64,000 nucleotides of DNA from Candidatus Woesearchaeota archaeon (GTDB taxonomy: Archaea > Nanobdellota > Nanobdellia > Woesearchaeales > JAGVYF01), in assembly GCA_023264635.1 (NCBI GenBank), contig JAHFLT010000005.1, positions 4,582 through 68,581 of the forward strand, written 5' to 3'. Below, piece by piece: positions 8,822 through 32,174 of this stretch. The translations under genes and the position numbers were made by a program. Positions within the stretch are counted from its first letter, which is position 1. Every line of letters starts with the position of its first letter. The notes beneath the pieces are model-generated. The model was not told the origin of the DNA and ran no database searches. It was given only the letters and a program-made list of their open reading frames with translations.

Positions 8822-9556
8822 TTATTTTCTTTGTAATATCCCAAGAGACGCTCTAAAGAAGAAACATGCGTCGATACCATATCCACAGCCGTAACGATTA
8901 CCGCGACTAACAGGCATCAAAACATTTTCCGGTGGAAGATAAAGCCATGTATTCTGCCTAATTTCCTCGGGTAATATCGCATACGGACGAGACCAGAGCT
9001 TCTGGACTAGGAAGGGGTTTATTTCGTTCACACCTTTGGGGGTACTCCAATCAAGTAATGAGCCAATGGAATACACTTCCTCTCCCGCGTGTTTCAGTTT
9101 TCCTCCTTGCACTACATATTGATATCCATTCCACACTAGATTCTCCGGGTCGAGATAGCAGTGCAACATATTCTCTTCCTGCATTATCGCCATGCTTAGC
9201 CATTCTCCGTAACCATTGAGCATATTATCAGCAATTGCTTGCTGGTCTGGTTGTAGTGTCCCTTCCAGTCCTCTGCAGATAAGGTCAAATGCTTCTACTG
9301 GTCTGGGATGGCGCTCGTAGCCGCGTGCTCGCAATGCACGCAGACTGGCGTCATAGGTGTACAGTCTTTTCTCTTTTCCATCATAAACCGCTTTCTCTTC
9401 GAAAACAACATCAGATAGTGCTGACTTTATGGTAATCTCCTTTTTCTCATCGGGTTTGCCGATATCGAGATATGATTCAATGCCCATAAAGAGGGAGAGA
9501 TTGAGTGACATTAAAAAACTTACCTGCTGAGTAAGTTGAGTAAAAGCTGAGAACAT
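8822..9556 (-). CDS. Unknown-function paralog family, copy 1 (of 3)
   Basis: Shares GKPDEKKEITIKSALSDVVFE, YERHPRP.EAFDLICRGLEG, YGEWLSMA, LHCYLDPENL, VVQGGK.KHA and KLWSRPYAILPE with 19030..19695 and 19692..20369. Likely true start is MGIESYLDIGKPDEKK. About 170 nt are near-identical to copy 2. Confidence 0.5.
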   Translation of the reverse strand: MFSAFTQLTQQVSFLMSLNLSLFMGIESYLDIGKPDEKKEITIKSALSDVVFEEKAVYDGKEKRLYTYDASLRALRARGYERHPRPVEAFDLICRGLEGTLQPDQQAIADNMLNGYGEWLSMAIMQEENMLHCYLDPENLVWNGYQYVVQGGKLKHAGEEVYSIGSLLDWSTPKGVNEINPFLVQKLWSRPYAILPEEIRQNTWLYLPPENVLMPVSRGNRYGCGYGIDACFFFRASLGILQRK

Positions 9557-9581: not shown

Positions 9582-10973
9582 TTGGGACTTGTGGGGGAAG
9601 TGACAATACAAGACAAACTCCTGGGAGATAATGGTGTCTACGACCTAGTGAACCAAAACTTCTACTTGAATCGTGCACAAATCCAGCTAGGAGACAGATT
9701 CTTCGAGCCAGTAGCGTTTATCGGCATTCTCACTGCTCTTGTCGACGGCAAAGAATTACTGTATGGTCCGTATGGCAAAGGGAAGACAACTTCTTCAGAA
9801 GCGTTGGGAGCACTCCTCTATGGACTCCCCTTGGAATTCATGCAGGTAAGCCAACTTGATGGTCATCCAGAGCAGACAGAAGAGAAAATAAAGGCTATCA
9901 TTGATTTAGGCAAGCTCACTAAAGAAGGGATTGAGGAGGTCATCTGGCGGTTGTTCGTGTATACTCCTGCAAAAGTATGTGATGAAATTAATCGTCTTCC
10001 CGAAGGCAAGCAGAACATCTTGCTCAAAGGAATTGATAGAAATGTATGGACGTACCGAGATAGTACATTGACAGTGCCGCAAGGATGCTTTTACGGAACA
10101 TGCAATTATGCTGACAGGGGAAATACAGATCTCATCCCACCGTTGAAAGACAGATTTGACATCGCTGTAGAAGTGAGACGAGCAGACCCTATTCGCCGCG
10201 AACTCATTAGAAATGGCGTTGTGCGAGATGCATTCGAACAGCTGAAGGAGCCAGCACTGTATACGGAAATTTTCGCTATGCTGATGGACTCCAAACACAC
10301 AGCTGAAAAAAAACTGGAGTTGCTAGAACAGATGAGTCAAAAATTCAAGCAAGAACTCAGCAAGCGCTTCAGTTTGTCCCTTCCCACGAATGATGAACTA
10401 CGCACTGCTAAAAAAGAGTTATCTTCTCTTATCTTGGAGGATGAGGCGACCCTATTCATAGATTACCTTACCAGCGAGATGGAATTCTGTATCTACCATG
10501 ACAAGCCAGAGCATGCCACCTGCCAGAAATGCCATTGGAAAGATTTTCTTTGTTCAAGAATGGGGAAAATAGGAGGCAGACTTGAGCTTTCGGTGGTTAA
10601 GTATGCCCGTGCAACAGCGTGGTTATTAGGGGAAAAAAAAGTAACATTGGAACACGTCAAGATGATATACCCTTATGCGCTATGGCACCGTGCAGAGTTT
10701 CAGGATAATATTTTACAGGAGTATGTCAGCGAGCCGAGAGAAAGCACCTTAAAGCTCCACATCGCACGAAAGATCGTGGAAGAGAAGACACCCCATTTTA
10801 TCGAGACAAAGGACCTGCAGGCACGGAGCTATAATGCTGTTGTCAATAGCAACGCAAACGACCTTGAGAAGTCTCACTTTAAGCATGCTGTGTACGTGGA
10901 TTACGTCAGTGCATGGGACTCCAAAAAAGACAAGGACGCTGTTGAGCAACTGCTGAAAAAAATAAGGAAATGA
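9582..10973 (+). CDS. MoxR-like AAA+ ATPase (AAA_3/AAA_5 type) with a Cys-containing C-terminal extension
   Basis: Walker A LLYGPYGKGKTT. Walker B and sensor region VCDEINRLPEGKQNILLKGIDRN. NP-loop/arginine region TVPQGCFYGTCNYADRGNTDLIPPLKDRFDIAVEV. Non-ATG start (TTG or GTG around 9582-9600). TATA-like ctttatatag about 25-30 nt upstream. Confidence 0.65.
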   Translation: MGLVGEVTIQDKLLGDNGVYDLVNQNFYLNRAQIQLGDRFFEPVAFIGILTALVDGKELLYGPYGKGKTTSSEALGALLYGLPLEFMQVSQLDGHPEQTEEKIKAIIDLGKLTKEGIEEVIWRLFVYTPAKVCDEINRLPEGKQNILLKGIDRNVWTYRDSTLTVPQGCFYGTCNYADRGNTDLIPPLKDRFDIAVEVRRADPIRRELIRNGVVRDAFEQLKEPALYTEIFAMLMDSKHTAEKKLELLEQMSQKFKQELSKRFSLSLPTNDELRTAKKELSSLILEDEATLFIDYLTSEMEFCIYHDKPEHATCQKCHWKDFLCSRMGKIGGRLELSVVKYARATAWLLGEKKVTLEHVKMIYPYALWHRAEFQDNILQEYVSEPRESTLKLHIARKIVEEKTPHFIETKDLQARSYNAVVNSNANDLEKSHFKHAVYVDYVSAWDSKKDKDAVEQLLKKIRK

Positions 10974-11650
10974 CGCTTGACAAACTGATAAAAAAATATG
11001 GTTTGTGGTCAAAAGAAGTTGTAGCATCAAAAGAAAAGTATGTAATAAATGAACAGGCACCTACACCCTATCACCGCTTGCTGGAGCATATCCTTTATTT
11101 TACACCCGAACAACCATTCCCCGGGGTATTCAAGCACTCTTACGATTTATTAGTAAAGGAAGGACTCGAGCCATCACAAGATGATATCGAAGCATTCGCA
11201 AAGAGTTTCCTCGTTTATGAAGGATATGACCGTTTCTGGCGCCGTGCAGGGAAATTTCTCTCAGCCATGATCGCATTATGGGAAAATAACACACACACAA
11301 AAACGTTTATTCGGCTCGATTTCTCTGCTGCAAGTAAACCTGTAGACTATGCATGCATAAAACTAAATAACTGTTCTATTCAGATAGATGGGTCTGTGGG
11401 CTCTTACTGCGGCATGAACAGCAAGGAATGCAATATCCTTATCCAAAGCAATGCTGGTCAATCTCTTGGTTACAAAGCAGAGAAAACTCTTTTCAAAGTA
11501 TCTGGAGAGACGGGAACCGGACTTGGAGCGTATGCACATGCATGCTCATATTTTGTCCGTGGCACAATAGCGCAGATTTCACCGTATATTCTATCCAGTT
11601 GCGAGGTTTACAATAGTGGTGGCAGCGCGCACACAAAGGTGTTCCCATGA
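10970..11650 (+). CDS. Small protein with an N-terminal helical region and a C-terminal GXGXG-type beta-helix repeat; paralog 1 of 3
   Basis: N-terminus MTLDKLIKKYG. C-terminal IQIDGSVGSYCGMNSKECNILIQSNAGQSLGYKAEKTLFKVSGETGTGLGAYAHACSYFVRG fits the GXGXG beta-helix pattern of the glutamate synthase C-terminal domain and FwdC. Start overlaps the upstream stop. Confidence 0.5.
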   Translation: MTLDKLIKKYGLWSKEVVASKEKYVINEQAPTPYHRLLEHILYFTPEQPFPGVFKHSYDLLVKEGLEPSQDDIEAFAKSFLVYEGYDRFWRRAGKFLSAMIALWENNTHTKTFIRLDFSAASKPVDYACIKLNNCSIQIDGSVGSYCGMNSKECNILIQSNAGQSLGYKAEKTLFKVSGETGTGLGAYAHACSYFVRGTIAQISPYILSSCEVYNSGGSAHTKVFP

Positions 11651-12219
11651 CCATAGACAAACTCCTCAAACAAAAAAAGGTCCCAGACAAAAAGGTAAGT
11701 GAACAGAAAAAGACAAATTATCAGGAATCACTTCAGCCATTGAGCCTTCATGACCTCTATAAAGATATGCTCCTTGGGTATGAATATGGCTTACGATGGG
11801 ACCCGAAAAAGCTGGACATCATCACCGTGACAAGGGATGATTTGACAGTAATCATAGACGAACTGTCATGCCACCAATCCTCTATCGGATTCGAGTTCTT
11901 CACAGGCAGCTTTATTTCAGATGTGATGATGCACTTGCTTATGAAGGGAGAACTTGAGAAATACATCACTATTACTCTTCCAAAGGCAGTTCACAGGATG
12001 GGCGCTGGAATCCATACCATAACCCTCGAAATTAAAGGAGACTGTGGCTACAATTGCGCGCAGAACGCGAAAAATGCGATGTTTATCGTCCACGGAGATG
12101 TGACAACCATTGGAAGAAATGAGAACTGTACATTTTACATTTATGGTGACGTCAAAAGTCATAAATATTATAATAGCAATGTGTATCTGTACAGAAACAA
12201 TGGATGGACTCACCTATGA
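11647..12219 (+). CDS. GXGXG-like beta-helix small protein, paralog 2
   Basis: N-terminus MTIDKLLKQKK. C-terminus ITLEIKGDCGYNCAQNAKNAMFIVHGDVTTIGRNENCTFYIYGDV. Overlapping start/stop with its neighbours. Confidence 0.5.
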   Translation: MTIDKLLKQKKVPDKKVSEQKKTNYQESLQPLSLHDLYKDMLLGYEYGLRWDPKKLDIITVTRDDLTVIIDELSCHQSSIGFEFFTGSFISDVMMHLLMKGELEKYITITLPKAVHRMGAGIHTITLEIKGDCGYNCAQNAKNAMFIVHGDVTTIGRNENCTFYIYGDVKSHKYYNSNVYLYRNNGWTHL

Positions 12220-12803
12220 CGCTTGAAAAACTTTTGAAGAAACACGGAATAAAGGTGATTGAAGTAAAGGATAAGGCAAAGCATATTGTTGCTTATCCCT
12301 CCATCGTAGAGATATACACTCTTTTAATAAAAGACGCTGCACAATTCTTCGACGGAAAAAAAAAGGTGCAATATGCTGATATATGTGAATTGCTCACAAG
12401 GAGAGGATGCACAAAAAATGAGTTTGAAAAACTATGCGCTTCACTGGATCAATACAAGAATATGCGTAATTTTCCTCGATGCACAGGTATCGCATTAAGC
12501 ACAATAGTAACAGTACTTCCAGCAAAGATGACTATTGATGTTTCTTCTTTATCTGTTCCGCCAGATTATCTCTGCACACGCCTCGCTGACAAGGAGTATA
12601 CCCTTATTGGGGAGGTAGGTAGATGTTTTGGGTTCCAGACAGAGCGCAGTATTTTCCATCTTGATGGGAGATATGGAGATTCTCTGGGCAAAGAAACTAG
12701 TGACTGCACGTTTTATATCAAAGACCCATATACTCCGCATAATATCCCCCCGTCCAATAGTGTTTACTACTTAAAGAATGGCAAGTGGCGGCGCGGGAGA
12801 TAA
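12204..12803 (+). CDS. GXGXG-like beta-helix small protein, paralog 3
   Basis: N-terminus MDSPMTLEKLLKKHG. C-terminus LIGEVGRCFGFQTERSIFHLDGRYGDSLGKETSDCTFYIKD. Confidence 0.45.
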   Translation: MDSPMTLEKLLKKHGIKVIEVKDKAKHIVAYPSIVEIYTLLIKDAAQFFDGKKKVQYADICELLTRRGCTKNEFEKLCASLDQYKNMRNFPRCTGIALSTIVTVLPAKMTIDVSSLSVPPDYLCTRLADKEYTLIGEVGRCFGFQTERSIFHLDGRYGDSLGKETSDCTFYIKDPYTPHNIPPSNSVYYLKNGKWRRGR

Positions 12804-17811: not shown

Positions 17812-18393
17812 TCAGTGTACTAAGCTTTGAACATCAAACGTTGCTTGTGTCCCTTTTAGTATCATCGGTGATCTTCCGATGAATGCAGCGGTAATGCCGT
17901 TGTGTTCCGCTTTCTTCCCCTTATATTGGCTCATTGCTATTGTGTTGCCATCAACCACAAAGAGTTGACCATTGTGATTCTTGTCATAACTGTATGCGAC
18001 GTGATGTAATTTGCCATCAAAAAGAGATATCTTGGTGGACTGCATTACAGGAACTCCACCTTCCAGATATTGGTCTTTTATGTTATATATTATCGTGAGC
18101 CCATCGATGAATCTTGACTCAAAGAGAATCACTTTGGCAGCATCATTGAACCTATCTGGCGGCATGGAAAGTGTCAGTGTTAGCGTGCCAGCATCAGCAT
18201 TCTGCACATCAAGTCCATTTGAGATGGAAACGATATTTTCTACTGGTTTCTCAGCAACAAGCACAACAGGTTTTGTCTCCTTAATGCTGTGCATAGAAAG
18301 CTGAAGAGGGGCTGCGTTGGAGAAGAATATCAGGAGGATGATAAGAAGGGGAGTTGAATTGATGATGAACAGCGTGTGCATTTTCTTAGTCAT
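17812..18393 (-). CDS. Secreted or membrane-anchored LamG/concanavalin-like lectin-domain protein
   Basis: N-terminal hydrophobic signal. GQLFVVDGNTIA resembles a LamG/pentraxin strand. Weak. Confidence 0.45.
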   Translation of the reverse strand: MTKKMHTLFIINSTPLLIILLIFFSNAAPLQLSMHSIKETKPVVLVAEKPVENIVSISNGLDVQNADAGTLTLTLSMPPDRFNDAAKVILFESRFIDGLTIIYNIKDQYLEGGVPVMQSTKISLFDGKLHHVAYSYDKNHNGQLFVVDGNTIAMSQYKGKKAEHNGITAAFIGRSPMILKGTQATFDVQSLVH

Positions 18394-18419: not shown

Positions 18420-18992
18420 TTAAGGATTGCGACTGAGCAAGTATTCCCTTAGCCTCTTTATTGCACGACCCCTGAAAAGGTTCTCCCCTGGCTGTCGCAT
18501 TTCACCGTATGTTTTCTGCTCAGGGTTATTCTCTTTTGGAATGAAGAGGGAATCCTCACCCCAGCCAAGCGTTCCTCTCTCTTCTTCCGCCATAGTACCT
18601 TCCTCTTCTCCAGCAAAAAGATGGGGAATGTCTCCGGGCTCACAATAAGCAATAACTGATTTGTATTTTACTGTCCGATTTTCTACACCCTGTAGTAACT
18701 TTAGAAGCCCTCTGCAGCCAAGCTTTGTGAAAACTGTCTTAGTATACACGCCAGGAAAACCGTCATATGCATCCATGAAAAATCCAGAGTCTTCCACAAC
18801 CACTGGCTTCTTTAGCTGGTTTGCAAGCTCACGTGCAGCTTCCTTGGCTACAGTTTCATTAGTCTCTGCACGTATCTCTCTGTATTCAATATCAATATGA
18901 TTGATAGTAATGTCTGGCTCCAGATAATGTTTAAATTCTTCTGCTTTGTTCTTGTTGCGGGTGACAAGATTTAATTCCATATCACATGACAA
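18420..18992 (-). CDS. Non-canonical purine NTP pyrophosphatase (Ham1/RdgB/ITPase family)
   Basis: LVTRNKNKAEEF, EDSGFFMDAYDGFPGVYTK and KSVIAYCEPG motifs. Confidence 0.8.
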   Translation of the reverse strand: MSCDMELNLVTRNKNKAEEFKHYLEPDITINHIDIEYREIRAETNETVAKEAARELANQLKKPVVVEDSGFFMDAYDGFPGVYTKTVFTKLGCRGLLKLLQGVENRTVKYKSVIAYCEPGDIPHLFAGEEEGTMAEEERGTLGWGEDSLFIPKENNPEQKTYGEMRQPGENLFRGRAIKRLREYLLSRNP

Positions 18993-19029: not shown

Positions 19030-19695
19030 TTATGCTTGGGGCATTACCCCGCGAGAGACCTTGCAGTACCCTGTGCCGACATCATACCATTTATAGTAAC
19101 CACCGCGACTCATAAGCCACAAAACACTCTCTGGTGGAATCCACATCAATGCATTCTGCCTAATCTTTTCGGGTAGTATCGCATACGGGCGAGACCAGAG
19201 TTTCTCGACCAAAGTGGGGTTTATTTCGTTCATGGTTTTGGGGGTAAAGCAATCAGGAAATGAGCTAATTGAATACACTTCCTCTCTCGCGTGTTTTATT
19301 TTTCCTCCTTGTACAACATACCTCCACTCTTTCTTATCCCATAGGAGATTCTCCGGATCGAGATAACAATGCAACAAATTTCCTTTCCGCAACATTGCCA
19401 TGCTTAGCCATTCGCCATAACTATTCATCATATCATCAGCGATTGCTTGCTGTTCTGGAGATAATCTTCCTTCCAGTCCTCTGCAGATAAGGTCAAATGC
19501 TTCTGCTGGACGGGGGTGGCGCTCATAGCCGCGTTCTCTTAGTGCTTGTAAGCTGTCATTGAAAGTGTAGAGTTTTTTGTGTTGTCCTTCGTACACAGTT
19601 CTCGGTTCGAAAACAACATCTGATAGTGCTGACTTTAGGGTAATCTCTTTTTTCTCATCGGGTTTATTGAGGCCGAGATAGAAATCAATGCTCAT
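19030..19695 (-). CDS. Unknown-function paralog family, copy 3
   Basis: Shares the same conserved blocks as 8822..9556. About 80% nucleotide identity in the core, with a divergent C-terminal tail. Confidence 0.5.
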   Translation of the reverse strand: MSIDFYLGLNKPDEKKEITLKSALSDVVFEPRTVYEGQHKKLYTFNDSLQALRERGYERHPRPAEAFDLICRGLEGRLSPEQQAIADDMMNSYGEWLSMAMLRKGNLLHCYLDPENLLWDKKEWRYVVQGGKIKHAREEVYSISSFPDCFTPKTMNEINPTLVEKLWSRPYAILPEKIRQNALMWIPPESVLWLMSRGGYYKWYDVGTGYCKVSRGVMPQA

Positions 19696-20369
19696 CGTTG
19701 TCGTACCCCACGAGATGCACTGGTGATGTAGCTGGTGTCAACATCATACTTGGTGATGTAGTTATTGCTACTGACAGGACGCAAAGCATTTTCTGGTGGA
19801 AGCAAAATCCACGCATTCTGTCTTATCTCTTCAGGTAATAGTGCATAGTGACGAGACCAGAGCTTCTCCACTAAGGCTGGATTCGCATCGTTCATATATT
19901 TAATGTGAATCAACCCATGCAATGAGCCAATAGAGTACACTTCCTCTTCCGCGTGTTTCAGTTTTCCTCCTTGAACAATGTATTGATTTCCATTCCACAC
20001 CAGATTCTCCGGGTCAAGATAGCAATGCAACAGATTTCCTTTCCGCAGAATTGCCATGCTCAGCCATTCGCCATAACTATTCACCATATCGCCAGCAACT
20101 GCTTGCTGCTCTGGTTGCAGTCTCTCCTCCAGTCCTCTGCAGATAAAATCAAACGCTTCTACTGGTCTGGGATGGCGCTCGTAGCCGCGTGCTCGCAATG
20201 CACGCAGACTGGCGTCATAGGTGTACAGTCTTTTCTCTTTTCCATCATAAACCGCTTTCTCTTCGAAAACAACATCTGATAGTGCTGACTTTATGGTAAT
20301 CTCCTTTTTCTCATCTGGTTTGCCTAGTCCCTCGTACAGTTTTATCATGTTAATAGAGAATCCCAACAA
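19692..20369 (-). CDS. Unknown-function paralog family, copy 2 (tandem with copy 3)
   Basis: Same blocks. The 170 nt at 20151-20320 match 9291-9460 with 2 mismatches. Confidence 0.5.
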   Translation of the reverse strand: MLGFSINMIKLYEGLGKPDEKKEITIKSALSDVVFEEKAVYDGKEKRLYTYDASLRALRARGYERHPRPVEAFDFICRGLEERLQPEQQAVAGDMVNSYGEWLSMAILRKGNLLHCYLDPENLVWNGNQYIVQGGKLKHAEEEVYSIGSLHGLIHIKYMNDANPALVEKLWSRHYALLPEEIRQNAWILLPPENALRPVSSNNYITKYDVDTSYITSASRGVRQR

Positions 20370-20826
20370 CTACCCCGTTGACTTGAGAGAACCTCACTGG
20401 CTCAAGATCAGATGAGGAATTATTGTCTCCCTTTACAATCGCATACCATCCTTCTTTGTCCTCCCCAATACGAATGACGCGGTGGATGATGAGCGTTCTG
20501 TCCAGAGAATATGAAATTATATCGCCGACATGAATCTCTTCAGAGCTCTGTGGCTTTACTTCAAATGCATTAGCTTCCTTATCCAGCGTAGGATCCATTG
20601 AATTGGTGTCAGTGAACTTTGACCAGAACAGATGTGGTGCACTGATGACAGCATAATTATCATAGACTTGTATCTGATCTTCCTTTAGATGATCTGCTGG
20701 TGATATGCGCTCTGGCGCAGCAACGAATGCATATGGACTCTCAAACTGTATAGAACTCAAAACAGTATGAGAGAACCATCCAAGCAATGCTGCACAGAGC
20801 ATGATGAAAAACAGCCACTTATCCAT
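20350..20826 (-). CDS. Signal peptidase I (S26 family, archaeal/SipW-like)
   Basis: N-terminal TM helix. Catalytic Ser box NSMDPTL. IIHRVIRI His box. Its 3' end overlaps paralog copy 2. Confidence 0.7.
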   Translation of the reverse strand: MDKWLFFIMLCAALLGWFSHTVLSSIQFESPYAFVAAPERISPADHLKEDQIQVYDNYAVISAPHLFWSKFTDTNSMDPTLDKEANAFEVKPQSSEEIHVGDIISYSLDRTLIIHRVIRIGEDKEGWYAIVKGDNNSSSDLEPVRFSQVNGVVVGILY

Positions 20827-20934
20827 ATGCTGCGAGATTCAGGACATCTTTTAAATGTTTCCTATAATTTAGCACTAATTAGTAGTAATATTTCTAAAGA
20901 ATGTTTATATAATAACTCTTCCCTCTAGCGGTGC

Positions 20935-21831
20935 ATGATAACAAAAGAAGGGTTAGCAGACCATCGGATGGCTGGCAGAATCACTGCGCAGGCTCTGGAG
21001 CATGGACGGAAGCTCATCAGAAAAGATATCCCTCTGCTGGAAGTGACAGAAAAAGTAGAGCAGAAGATAGCACAGCTTGGTGGGAAGCTTGCTTTTCCGG
21101 TCAATATGTCTTGTGACAGCATAGCTGCACATTATGCAGCTGCTCCGAATGATGCGAGTATCGTAAAAAACCATGTGCTTAAGCTTGACGTAGGCGTGCA
21201 CATAAATGGATTCGTTGCAGATAGTGCCATCACGATTGACTTGTCTGGTGAAAACAGCGACTTGGTCAAGGCATCACGTGAGGCGCTGAACAAGGCCATA
21301 AAAGAAATAAAACCCGGCATTAAACTTGGTGAGATTGGTGCATGTGTCGAAGAAACAATCACTGGTAGGGGATTCCAGCCAATTCGCAATCTCTCTGGGC
21401 ACGAAGTTGGCCAGTACATTGTTCACACAGGAATAAGCATTCCCAATTACGCCAATGGAGAAAAGACTGAAATCGAAGAAGGGATGATCATTGCAGTTGA
21501 ACCATTTGCAACAACAGGTGTCGGATTGATTAAGGAACAAGGTTCTCCTGAGATCTTCAGCATCCCTGTTTACAAGCCTGTGCGCATTGGCTTTGTGAGA
21601 GAGATTGTTACCTACTTGGAAACAAACTATAAGCATATGCCCTTCTCAAAGCGTTCACTCATGCCCGCATTTTCTTTGGCACAGATAAACTATGCACTGT
21701 CTTCCCTGAAACCAATCCTTCGCGAGTATGCACCTCTTGTCGAGCAAAAGGGGGGATTTGTCAGCCAAGCAGAACACACAATGTATATCACCGCTGACAA
21801 AGCAGTTGTTCTGACAAAAGAGGACGCATAA
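20935..21831 (+). CDS. map: Methionine aminopeptidase, type 2 (archaeal)
   Basis: Archaeal MetAP2 N-terminal pattern ...HRMAGRITAQALEHGRKLI, DVGVHINGFVADSAIT, and metal ligands in HEVGQY and EPF. Confidence 0.85.
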   Translation: MITKEGLADHRMAGRITAQALEHGRKLIRKDIPLLEVTEKVEQKIAQLGGKLAFPVNMSCDSIAAHYAAAPNDASIVKNHVLKLDVGVHINGFVADSAITIDLSGENSDLVKASREALNKAIKEIKPGIKLGEIGACVEETITGRGFQPIRNLSGHEVGQYIVHTGISIPNYANGEKTEIEEGMIIAVEPFATTGVGLIKEQGSPEIFSIPVYKPVRIGFVREIVTYLETNYKHMPFSKRSLMPAFSLAQINYALSSLKPILREYAPLVEQKGGFVSQAEHTMYITADKAVVLTKEDA

Positions 21832-31897: not shown

Positions 31898-31949
31898 TTT
31901 TAAAGGTATGGCGAAATCTTTATAAACACGGCACTATGTTCAGGTACTT

Positions 31950-32060
31950 GGACGGTCATAGGGGCTTGGTTCACCCGATCCCATTCCGAACTCGGACGTT
32001 AAGCAAGCCTCCGTACCGGTAAGTACTTTACTCAGTAGGGGAAAGCTGGTAAGCTGTCCA
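31950..32060 (+). rRNA. rrf: 5S ribosomal RNA
   Basis: CACCCGATCCCATTCCGAACTCGGACGTTAAGC matches the universal 5S loop B/helix III/loop C core. Terminal helix I is ggacgg...ctgtcc. TATA-like tttataaa about 25 nt upstream. No 16S/23S adjacent. Confidence 0.75.
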
Positions 32061-32174
32061 CTCACATTCTCCCTTTACTACATTCTCCCGTAAGCATATT
32101 CTTCACTCAGCTATTCTTCCACAACTTACACAAAGATTAAATAATGCTGTGCACTGCCCGAGTAACACTTACCT

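Follow-up and report, generated by a model that had tools for sequence, protein, structure and literature searches.

We analysed a 64-kb stretch of DNA, hereafter the window, in which three paralogous genes lie on the minus strand. Two of them (copies 2 and 3) stand in tandem between genes for a signal peptidase and a Ham1/ITPase, and the third (copy 1) stands alone about 10 kb away. The segments that correspond to the variable region (VR) of diversity-generating retroelement (DGR) target genes are listed with the genes.

20350-20826, minus strand: archaeal-type signal peptidase I, 158 aa, with SMDPT/HRV/GDNN boxes and an N-terminal membrane anchor
19692-20348, minus strand: copy 2 (P0001), 218 aa, start ATG 20348; predicted AvpA-like C-type-lectin fold, apparent member of a DGR variable-protein family
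20155-20276, minus strand: 122 nt of copy 2, base-for-base identical to 9291-9412 in copy 1
19719-19775, minus strand: VR equivalent of copy 2, VSSNNYITKYDVDTSYITS; NNY in 18/19 codons
19692-19718, minus strand, stop included: conserved tail of copy 2, ASRGVRQR, directly after the variable segment
19030-19695, minus strand: copy 3 (P0020), 221 aa, paralog in tandem with copy 2
19060-19116, minus strand: VR equivalent of copy 3, LMSRGGYYKWYDVGTGYCK, followed by the tail VSRGVMPQA
18420-18992, minus strand: Ham1/ITPase, downstream neighbour in the same co-directional gene string
8822-9487, minus strand: copy 1 (P0003), stand-alone paralog
8852-8908, minus strand: variable segment of copy 1, followed by the degraded tail motif ASLGIL

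The first-pass annotation had described the two tandem ORFs and the third copy as paralogs. Their coordinates were confirmed, and the three proteins share 66-72% amino-acid identity (tblastn E 1e-94 to 1e-105). The third copy was listed as an ORF at 8822-9556(-), and its gene call, P0003, starts at the upstream ATG 9556; the start consistent with the family is MGIESYL at 9487. Copies 2 and 3 do lie head-to-tail with a 4-nt overlap, the ATG of copy 3 falling within the TGA of copy 2 (ATGA). The 20-nt overlap reported between copy 2 and the signal peptidase gene is a start-codon artefact, which exists only if copy 2 is read from TTG 20369 (19692-20369(-)). We take ATG 20348 as the start because it is used by the public gene call and is matched by the N-termini of all paralogs. 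With this start the junction reads TAA-c-ATG, a 1-nt spacer. The paralogs are single-domain proteins of about 220 aa. As annotated, they have no signal peptide, and they lack any membrane or other hydrophobic segment (maximum KD19 below 1.2).

The ORF upstream of copy 2 had been called a signal peptidase I, and its sequence boxes and membrane anchor support the call. SMDPTL, IIHRVI and KGDNN are read in its translation, the membrane anchor covers residues 5-23 (maximum KD19 2.01), and the ORF matches TIGR02228 with E 3.7e-13, although its 49.6 bits are just under the cutoff of 51.85. Pfam S26 and S24 match weakly (E 0.025 and 0.088). The Ham1 gene matches PF01725 over its full length (profile 2-186 of 186, 123.6 bits, E 1.1e-35). 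The minus-strand order of signal peptidase, copy 2, copy 3 and Ham1 is as first described, and the string runs on past Ham1 to a LamG-like protein and an NAD kinase.

With only a 1-nt spacer and a 4-nt overlap between the genes, they may plausibly be co-transcribed from the divergent region 20827-20934, as would be expected if the paralogs were tied functionally to the signal peptidase, as substrates, partners or secretion regulators, and hence shared an operon with it. We consider such a tie very improbable. The paralogs have no segment that would mark them for export, and a homologue of the window signal peptidase is absent from all 26 other loci, on which ground we rejected a functional link. 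Other paralogs of the same assembly adjoin unrelated genes (RLI/ABCE1, a HAD hydrolase, IMPDH) or one another, and copy 1 is solitary behind its own divergent intergenic region. A string that continues into Ham1, the LamG-like gene and NAD kinase is typical small-genome packing. These data bear out the earlier suspicion that the link is only positional: signal peptidase and Ham1 are mere neighbours in a compact co-directional gene string.

No family in Pfam, NCBIfam, PHROGs or PADLOC matches the paralogs. Searching all PDB sequences with the family profile (E ≤10) gave nothing meaningful and did not return 5ioo. Structure prediction was more informative. An AlphaFold (AF2) model of a paralog reached a pLDDT of 90.8 and a pTM of 0.86, and its best Foldseek match was 5ioo (AvpA), with a probability of 0.97 and a TM-score of only about 0.45. 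The second-closest fold was that of TaqVP (5VF4), likewise a DGR target with a C-type-lectin fold. The window paralogs are thus predicted to have the AvpA-type C-type-lectin fold, a fold of DGR variable proteins, and what had been annotated as an unknown paralog family can be identified at the level of the modelled fold. The family comprises at least 517 clusters at 50% identity, and all named sources are DPANN archaea. A pattern scan of viral contigs gave a single chance match and no family member. Peptide patterns of the close paralogs picked out no relative among contigs of GTDB representative genomes, and one short locus was all that a scan of metagenomes returned.

Homologues in related genomes connect the family to DGRs. 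In related DPANN genomes a homologue lies directly upstream of a template repeat (TR) and the gene for a reverse transcriptase (RT), the components of this hypermutation system; at L013, L014, L017, L018 and L027 the RT is directly downstream and is accompanied by a TR. The homologue at L017 (P0049) matches with E 8.5e-35, and the A1 profile matches all loci, so the window paralogs are homologous to proteins with a VR/TR pair and an adjacent RT. In these relatives the TR, located 3' of the final target gene, consists of AAY-rich codons. When TR and VR of L017 are aligned with plain MAFFT, 10/11 core mismatches fall at TR adenines, and GGAATA in the TR stands against GGGGTA in the VR. Across relatives, each VR carries 9-16 A-to-N changes versus 0-6 non-A mismatches. 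One relative, P0059 (L002/L003), lacks both a TR and an RT in the surrounding 10 kb.

A single TR can serve several copies. At L018 one TR matches four tandem copies, in the MAG CAZGZA01 one TR matches copies on other contigs, and the L014 TR matches the L009 copy on contig CAYJXL010000004, in trans. Copies served by the same TR agree base for base in a 21-nt 5' anchor and also at non-adenine positions; the CAZGZA01 anchor, GTGCGGCCTGTGGCTCGTGGC, is identical in five copies. Copy number among relatives ranges from singletons through tandem arrays of 2-4 and a two-domain fusion to at least six dispersed copies in one MAG. The first-pass annotation was therefore right in spirit to see a diversifying accessory locus. 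Judged by these sequence relationships, the paralog family appears to be a DGR variable-protein (target) family whose copy number varies widely between relatives.

We then located the variable part of the proteins. The annotation had spoken of variable C-termini; a stretch near the end, about 19 codons just upstream of the ASRGV motif, is indeed hypervariable, but the extreme C-terminus, the ASRGV motif itself, is nearly invariant across the family. Entropy over 28 close paralogs is highest in the VR, and identity between the window copies at codon positions 1+2 is about 0.5-0.6 there versus 0.79-0.88 in the scaffold. The window segment coincides exactly with the segment that the TR templates in homologues.

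The codons of this segment are also distinctive. Across the three copies, NNY codons make up 47/57 of the VR versus 261/603 (43%) of the scaffold (p = 8e-9). When only amino acids with at least three codons are counted, the bias persists (25/30 versus 143/333, p = 3e-5). Lys, Glu, Gln, Met and Trp account for 6.6% of VR residues versus 25.6% of scaffold residues. This footprint, of the kind that AAY templating leaves, is confined to the VR.

This bias could in part stem from selection that favours Tyr, Ser, Gly, Asp and Asn at a binding site. Taken further, the variable segments might owe nothing to a retroelement: point mutation under diversifying selection, together with recombination between paralogs, would have shaped them, and the likeness to DGR targets would be shared fold ancestry. 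Tyr, Ser, Gly and Asp are common in binding sites, Handa et al. (2016, PMC5006420) reported AvpA-like proteins from Woesearchaeota genomes that have no DGR, and mosaic gene conversion is directly visible among the copies (below). Selection as the sole cause is nevertheless disfavoured because the bias extends to synonymous third positions. The excess of third-position pyrimidines (25/30 versus 43%) is unexplained by amino-acid selection and is the expected residue of AAY templating, and the exact agreement between the variable segment and the TR-templated segment of homologues also argues against this reading. We regard an origin without any retroelement as improbable.

Is a retroelement present at the locus? 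The DNA searched was the 64-kb window; four other neighbourhoods of the assembly were covered as gene tables only. For a DGR RT in the window, tblastn with the L017 RT gave no match at E ≤0.01, an RT profile HMM reached no better than E 1.6 across all six-frame ORFs, and a YxDD motif scan was negative. The regions within 10 kb of P0005, P0022 and P0019, three paralogs of the same assembly, contain no RVT_1 gene. For a TR, blastn-short found no repeats of the last ~100 nt of the window copies in the window, and an adenine-wildcard scan of both its strands gave, at best, 37 non-A mismatches over 123 nt. The TRs of other genomes do not match the window copies. The idea that the A-rich VR of copy 2 templates copy 1 or copy 3 was rejected, as the scan gave 37 non-A mismatches.

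Just outside the window, the ENA version of the assembly shows a tandem array, P0027-P0021. Beyond it come a gap of 580 nt and then an ORF on the same strand that the contig end truncates, an arrangement that matches the layout of target, TR and RT in relatives.

The window copies could be live targets, still hypermutated in trans by one or more DGRs elsewhere in the genome, possibly in the ~7.5 kb of contig outside the window. The gap and cut ORF stand where relatives have the TR and RT. Moreover, trans-targeting of dispersed paralogs is demonstrated in CAZGZA01 and CAYJXL010000004, and other DGRs are known to have targets at a distance (PMC5758913). Copies 2 and 3 also keep the VR-type end TCTCG(T/C)GGGGTA, as in relatives (in copy 1 the stretch reads TCTCTTGGGATA), but this conservation may be protein-driven, since the same stretch encodes the conserved SRGV strand.

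The copies themselves argue for another history. Whereas co-targets in relatives share identical anchors and non-adenine positions, no such agreement holds between the window copies, which vary in anchor, tail (GCA TCT CGT, GTC TCT CGC and GCG TCT CTT in copies 2, 3 and 1) and VR third-codon positions. Third-position identity in the VR is 0.53-0.61, no higher than the 0.62-0.75 of the scaffold. Copy 1 has lost the SRGV motif, and no inverted repeat 3' of copies 2 and 3 passed our scan (seed 9, arms within 40 nt). As weak further evidence, among the 120 best of 5514 DGR-RT homologues none is on a contig with a length that fits the assembly. Given these differences, we think it unlikely that the copies are live targets, even with trans-targeting documented in relatives.

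The paralogs also exchange segments. Copies 1 and 2 share the 122-nt identical run within a wider block of 152 nt at 99.3% identity, compared with 80% over the genes, and this run is a gene-conversion tract between dispersed paralogs. P0001 and P0002 are nearly identical over the C-terminal half, with VR and tail identical; in P0009 and P0221, 135 central residues are identical and the VRs differ. The source contig holds six paralogs, three of them in the window. About 28 close paralogs are in the database, standing as pairs, triplets and singletons among housekeeping genes, and those traced belong to one assembly (one genome or several related metagenome populations).

Taken together, these data lead us to favour the reading that the window copies are orphan, probably frozen paralogs once written by a DGR, multiplied by tandem duplication and shuffled by gene conversion; we hold this to be probable, if far from certain. 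In the predicted fold, the stretch of ~19 codons that separates strand beta4' from the terminal ASRGV strand would form a variable ligand-binding tip. In the family at large, this tip segment would be the VR of a DGR, rewritten by the RT via the TR in an adenine-specific manner, in tandem copies and in trans. Such a retroelement would once have written the window copies, and one common template would no longer overwrite them. Instead, the lineage may keep a germline set of fixed variants, which would have grown by tandem duplication and then been shuffled by segmental gene conversion. The proteins likely bind variable partners, for example host, neighbour or virus molecules.

A broader version of this idea is tentative, and we give it less than an even chance: an archived repertoire may replace or supplement on-line DGR hypermutation. 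Dozens of DGR-written variable-lectin genes would be kept as intact ORFs, and segmental gene conversion between them would yield combinatorial binding-tip diversity without a resident RT. Its mirror image is one DGR with more than 25 trans targets; if true, this set would be about threefold the size of the largest one in the 2018 survey.

On either account the previously uninterpreted family can now be read as variable binding proteins of archaeal DGRs. The window presents DGR-type targets without an adjacent retroelement, in which the AAY-to-NNY fingerprint is kept while the copies have drifted apart and exchanged segments. Should the whole genome have no DGR, this would be a clean case in which diversity generated by a DGR has been fixed, and expanded into a multigene family, in the tiny genome of a symbiont. 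Should it contain a DGR, the target set would be unusually large.

The closest structural comparison is AvpA from Nanoarchaeota (PDB 5IOO). Its structured domain has 209 residues, similar to the 218-221 aa of the tandem paralogs, and both are single domains. AvpA-like proteins come from groundwater DPANN archaea, the same organism group (PMC5006420). In AvpA a short VR starts after beta4', as the variable segment does in the predicted fold here, and the IMH (homing) end encodes a non-variable beta5 strand ending in GV (RFxGV), to which ASRGV corresponds in the window proteins. The resemblance is at the fold level only. No similarity to AvpA can be detected in sequence. Of the three motifs of the AvpA sequence family, GxxVVVYAH and HPxxxPFxG do not occur as such, and RFxGV stands against ASRGV here; GNLLHCYLD and SRGV are only loose counterparts. 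AvpA has a 46-residue extension after the VR, whereas the window proteins end 8-9 residues after theirs. The window paralogs are therefore a separate sequence family in the same fold subclass as AvpA. According to Handa et al. (2016, PMC5006420), Mtd and TvpA are members of the FGE subclass, and their VRs are about twice the length of AvpA's. TaqVP (5VF4), TvpA (2Y3C) and Mtd come from bacteria or phages and, unlike the window copies, all three have a cognate TR/RT that has been demonstrated.

Multi-target DGRs offer a second comparison. The Treponema denticola DGR has seven non-adjacent targets and a Stenotrophomonas DGR has eight tandem targets (Wu et al. 2018, PMC5758913). Here, too, paralogs are both tandem and dispersed, as are those of the relatives (four in tandem at L018; at least five copies on four contigs in CAZGZA01), and the ~28 close paralogs outnumber any target set in that survey. 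In multi-target DGRs every target matches the TR save at adenines. For the window copies there is no matching TR in view, and a single template does not fit all three.

As multi-copy genes with a (predicted) hypervariable binding segment and segmental conversion tracts, the paralogs also resemble a different class of loci. The pilS/pilE and vls cassettes are gene-conversion-driven variable gene families. Here, by contrast, every copy is an intact ORF with a start of its own, and there is no sign of a single expression site with silent cassettes, so the likeness is one of analogy only.

One relative is fused to a Ser/Thr kinase. This fusion, together with the missing export signal, bears on whether the proteins act at the cell surface, the usual assumption, or inside the cell.

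The three copies are clear paralogs (tblastn E 1e-94 to 1e-105, 66-72% identity), and tblastn found no fourth copy in the window. Copy 1 is solitary and has a divergent intergenic region in common with an AAA ATPase gene. Copies 2 and 3 belong to a tight gene string.

8822-9556, minus: copy 1 ORF, third paralog
17812-18393, minus: LamG-like membrane protein, same tight gene string
18420-18992, minus: Ham1 (PF01725, E 1e-35)
19030-19695, minus: copy 3 ORF, 221 aa
19692 (end) to 20369 (TTG start, 225 aa) or 20348 (ATG start, 218 aa), minus: copy 2 ORF
20350-20826, minus: ORF of 158 aa, predicted archaeal-type signal peptidase I
20935-21831, plus: methionine aminopeptidase gene, divergent from the signal peptidase

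The first-pass annotation placed the signal peptidase, copy 2, copy 3 and Ham1 in that order on the minus strand, as the ORF map confirms. It also described a 4-nt overlap of copies 2 and 3, which is present as ATGA, with the ATG of copy 3 over the TGA of copy 2. A proposed 20-nt overlap between copy 2 and the signal peptidase gene exists only with the TTG start. At this point the sequence is TAT TAA c ATG ATA AAA. Both the public annotation of copy 2 (P0001, 218 aa) and the N-terminus of every paralog (consensus M-x-I-[DE]-x-Y-L-G-x-x-KPDEKKE) start with the ATG, so the true junction is a 1-nt spacer. The 158-aa ORF scored slightly under the TIGR02228 cutoff of 51.85 (49.6 bits, E 3.7e-13). 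It carries SMDPT, HRV and GDNN boxes and an N-terminal anchor, and judged by these features its product is an archaeal-type signal peptidase I.

The paralogs were said to lack a signal peptide, and we find no hydrophobic stretch in them. Their link to the signal peptidase, which the first-pass annotation thought might be only transcriptional, is best seen as positional: a peptidase homologue was absent from all 26 of the other family loci searched, and the neighbours of the paralogs vary. Elsewhere in the same assembly, the gene ahead of a paralog is RLI/ABCE1, a HAD hydrolase, IMPDH or a further family member. Spacing alone makes it plausible that the peptidase, copy 2, copy 3 and Ham1 are co-transcribed from the 108-nt divergent region that separates the string from the methionine aminopeptidase gene; such co-transcription, if real, would imply no functional tie, and we regard a functional link between the paralogs and the signal peptidase as highly improbable.

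No model in Pfam, NCBIfam, PHROG or PADLOC matched the paralogs. A database search returned 86 relatives, all annotated "hypothetical" and, where the source was named, all from DPANN archaea (Nanoarchaeota, Woesearchaeota). An exhaustive profile search gave 517 clusters at 50% identity. In the alignment, a scaffold with conserved motifs (YERHPRPxEAF, YGEWLS, LDPENL and SRxYxxLP) is followed by a hypervariable stretch and, last of all, by ASRGV, which hardly varies. The best Foldseek match (probability 0.97) of an AlphaFold model built on the family alignment (pLDDT 90.8, pTM 0.86) was 5ioo, the variable protein AvpA of a Nanoarchaeota diversity-generating retroelement (DGR). As in AvpA, the variable stretch is modeled between beta4' and the terminal beta5 (PMC5006420), here strand 190-195 and residues 215-217 (GVR within ASRGVR), respectively. 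Sequence-level similarity of the paralogs to AvpA was not detectable, and they therefore form a separate sequence family of the AvpA fold type. The family domain also occurs in fusions. P0088 (1026 aa) has two such domains behind an N-terminal Ser/Thr protein kinase (Pkinase E 4e-32), and P0087 (722 aa, locus L007 2610-4775, from an Aenigmatarchaeota MAG) is a two-domain fusion with a reverse transcriptase (RT) remnant downstream.

Loci of relatives were retrieved with a degenerate DNA pattern for D-x-x-x-S-YGEWLS, which picked out family members at 20 loci in DPANN MAGs. In one of these, L017, an ORF with the RT motifs SQFFANIYL and YVDD lies 200 nt 3' of the homologue P0049. The final ~84 nt of the variable stretch of the P0049 gene recur at the start of this ORF, and in a plain MAFFT alignment 10 of 11 core mismatches fall at adenines of the downstream copy; at the repeat end, the template reads GGAATA and the gene GGGGTA. 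This type of RT is scored as such by PADLOC (RT E 6e-53) and by precomputed PF00078 matches, and the same RT directly follows a family gene in L013, L014, L018 and L027. The relatives' template repeats (TRs) are AAY-rich and encode ...GRGNFNNR(F/Y)NVN..N.NNRASRGI, with 9-16 A-to-N changes and 0-6 other changes per variable region (VR). Contigs of the same size pair further relatives with DGR-type RTs (P0041/P0228, P0042/P0233 and P0063/P0257). These data prove that the paralog family is a DGR target family.

A single template serves four tandem paralogs in L018 (Woesearchaeota UBA153), two genes in L013, and at least five paralogs over four contigs in the MAG CAZGZA01, where the 21-nt 5' anchor is nucleotide-identical in all co-targets. 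The L014 TR also matches the L009 copy, a second copy on the same contig that was fetched as a separate locus. Tandem arrays and targeting in trans are thus the norm in this family.

Besides adenine substitutions, several VRs among those of L013, L014, L009, L018 and L027/L022 show in-frame gaps of 3, 6 or 9 nt relative to their templates, most commonly one codon lost directly after GGC-xAC-TT. Such gaps are unusual for DGR homing. In L010, masked bases (N) fall exactly within the VR. Many family copies come from L005, L010, L012, L016, L022, L026, L027 (CAZGZA01) and other 'binchicken' MAGs titled 'uncultured Methanosarcinales archaeon'. Their DGR RT is closely related to RTs of DPANN-labelled MAGs, and all other named family sources are DPANN archaea; the 'Methanosarcinales' label of these records looks unreliable.

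In the window copies, the VR equivalents are 19 codons each.

8852-8908, minus: VR equivalent of copy 1
19060-19116, minus: VR equivalent of copy 3
19719-19775, minus: VR equivalent of copy 2

Over the 28 closest paralogs, entropy reaches its maximum in the variable segment and stays close to zero along most of the scaffold. Scaffold identity among the three window copies is 0.79-0.88 at codon positions 1 and 2 and 0.62-0.75 at position 3, and in the variable segment it is about 0.5-0.6 at positions 1 and 2 and also at position 3. NNY codons make up 47/57 of the variable segment and 261/603 elsewhere (Fisher P = 8e-9), and when only amino acids with at least three codons are counted, pyrimidine-ending codons are still enriched (25/30 compared to 143/333, P = 3e-5). 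Lys, Glu, Gln, Met and Trp together account for 6.6% of VR residues and 25.6% of scaffold residues in the 28 paralogs. This codon and residue bias is what AAY templating is expected to leave behind, and a retroelement-free origin of the variable tips is very unlikely.

No RT was found in the window, either by tblastn with the L017 RT (E <= 0.01) or by searching the ORFs of all six frames with a profile built from 70 DGR RTs (best E 1.6). The best template candidate in an adenine-wildcard scan of the window had 37 non-adenine mismatches in 123 nt, and blastn-short returned nothing. Likewise, no RVT_1 gene lies within plus or minus 10 kb of P0005, P0022 or P0019 in the same assembly (ENA ERZ27297570), and no inverted repeat downstream of copies 2 and 3 passed our scan. 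Whereas the CAZGZA01 co-targets share their anchor, the window copies differ in anchor (TTGATGCCTGTTAGTCGCGGT / TTGCGTCCTGTCAGTAGCAAT / TTGTGGCTTATGAGTCGCGGT), tail and VR third-codon positions, the last diverging about as much as they do in the scaffold. Copy 1 lacks the SRGV motif and reads ASLGIL. The differing anchors, tails and VR third positions indicate that there was no recent rewriting from one common template.

The window copies could instead be live trans-targets of an unseen DGR elsewhere, which we consider possible but rather unlikely. The source contig (71,538 nt, compared to 64,000 in the window) carries the paralogs P0004, P0027 and P0021 outside the window. In the ENA version, a 2,468-nt contig, a cut copy, P0027 and P0021 lie in tandem, each overlapping the next by 4 nt. 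Beyond this array comes a gap of 580 nt free of genes, and then an ORF on the same strand that the end of the contig truncates. In relatives, TR and RT occupy the place held here by the gap and cut ORF, in keeping with a live element.

Copies 1 and 2 lie 10.8 kb apart and are 80% identical overall, but match without a single difference over 122 nt (9291-9412 and 20155-20276), inside a 152-nt block at 99.3% identity. The longest run expected by chance is about 22 nt; the 122-nt run is a tract of recent gene conversion. Between P0001 and P0002, identity is about 72% over the N-terminal half and almost complete over the C-terminal half, the VR and tail being the same. P0009 and P0221 have 135 identical central residues and unrelated VRs and tails. 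The family is a mosaic.

The window paralogs are, we conclude, probably orphans within a DGR variable-protein family. On this reading, mutagenic retrohoming would have written their binding tips, which then became fixed; tandem duplication would have raised the number of genes and gene conversion would be reshuffling them, with a germline repertoire of binding specificities as the outcome. The modeled fold, like the variable tip, points to ligand binding. Surface attachment is the role usually proposed for DPANN DGR targets (review PMC6349945). Intracellular sensing may be the role instead, because the paralogs lack export signals and the kinase fusion in P0088 hints at such a sensor. Earlier work has described DPANN DGRs with C-type-lectin targets, targets that are multiple or remote, and AvpA-like proteins in the absence of a DGR (PMC5006420; PMC5758913). 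The present case adds a family outside all four of the profile libraries queried, a well-documented orphan example that still bears the codon footprint, conversion tracts that can be seen, and a paralog set of unusual size.

The 193-aa LamG-like protein, encoded two genes past the lectin-fold paralogs in their gene string, carries a membrane anchor or signal at its N-terminus (KD19 2.2); its Laminin_G_3 / concanavalin-like match is weak (E 9e-4). Divergent from copy 1, an AAA_5 / AAA_lid_2 (MoxR-like) ATPase gene (9582-10973, plus) is directly followed by three consecutive plus-strand ORFs with overlapping junctions (10970-11650, 11647-12219 and 12204-12803; 226, 190 and 199 aa). These have no significant Pfam match and a similar N-terminal '(T)(L/I)(D/E)KLLKK' start, and could form another small family of paralogs in the window. 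The only Rfam family at gathering threshold in the window is a 5S rRNA gene at 31948-32062 on the plus strand (70.2 bits).
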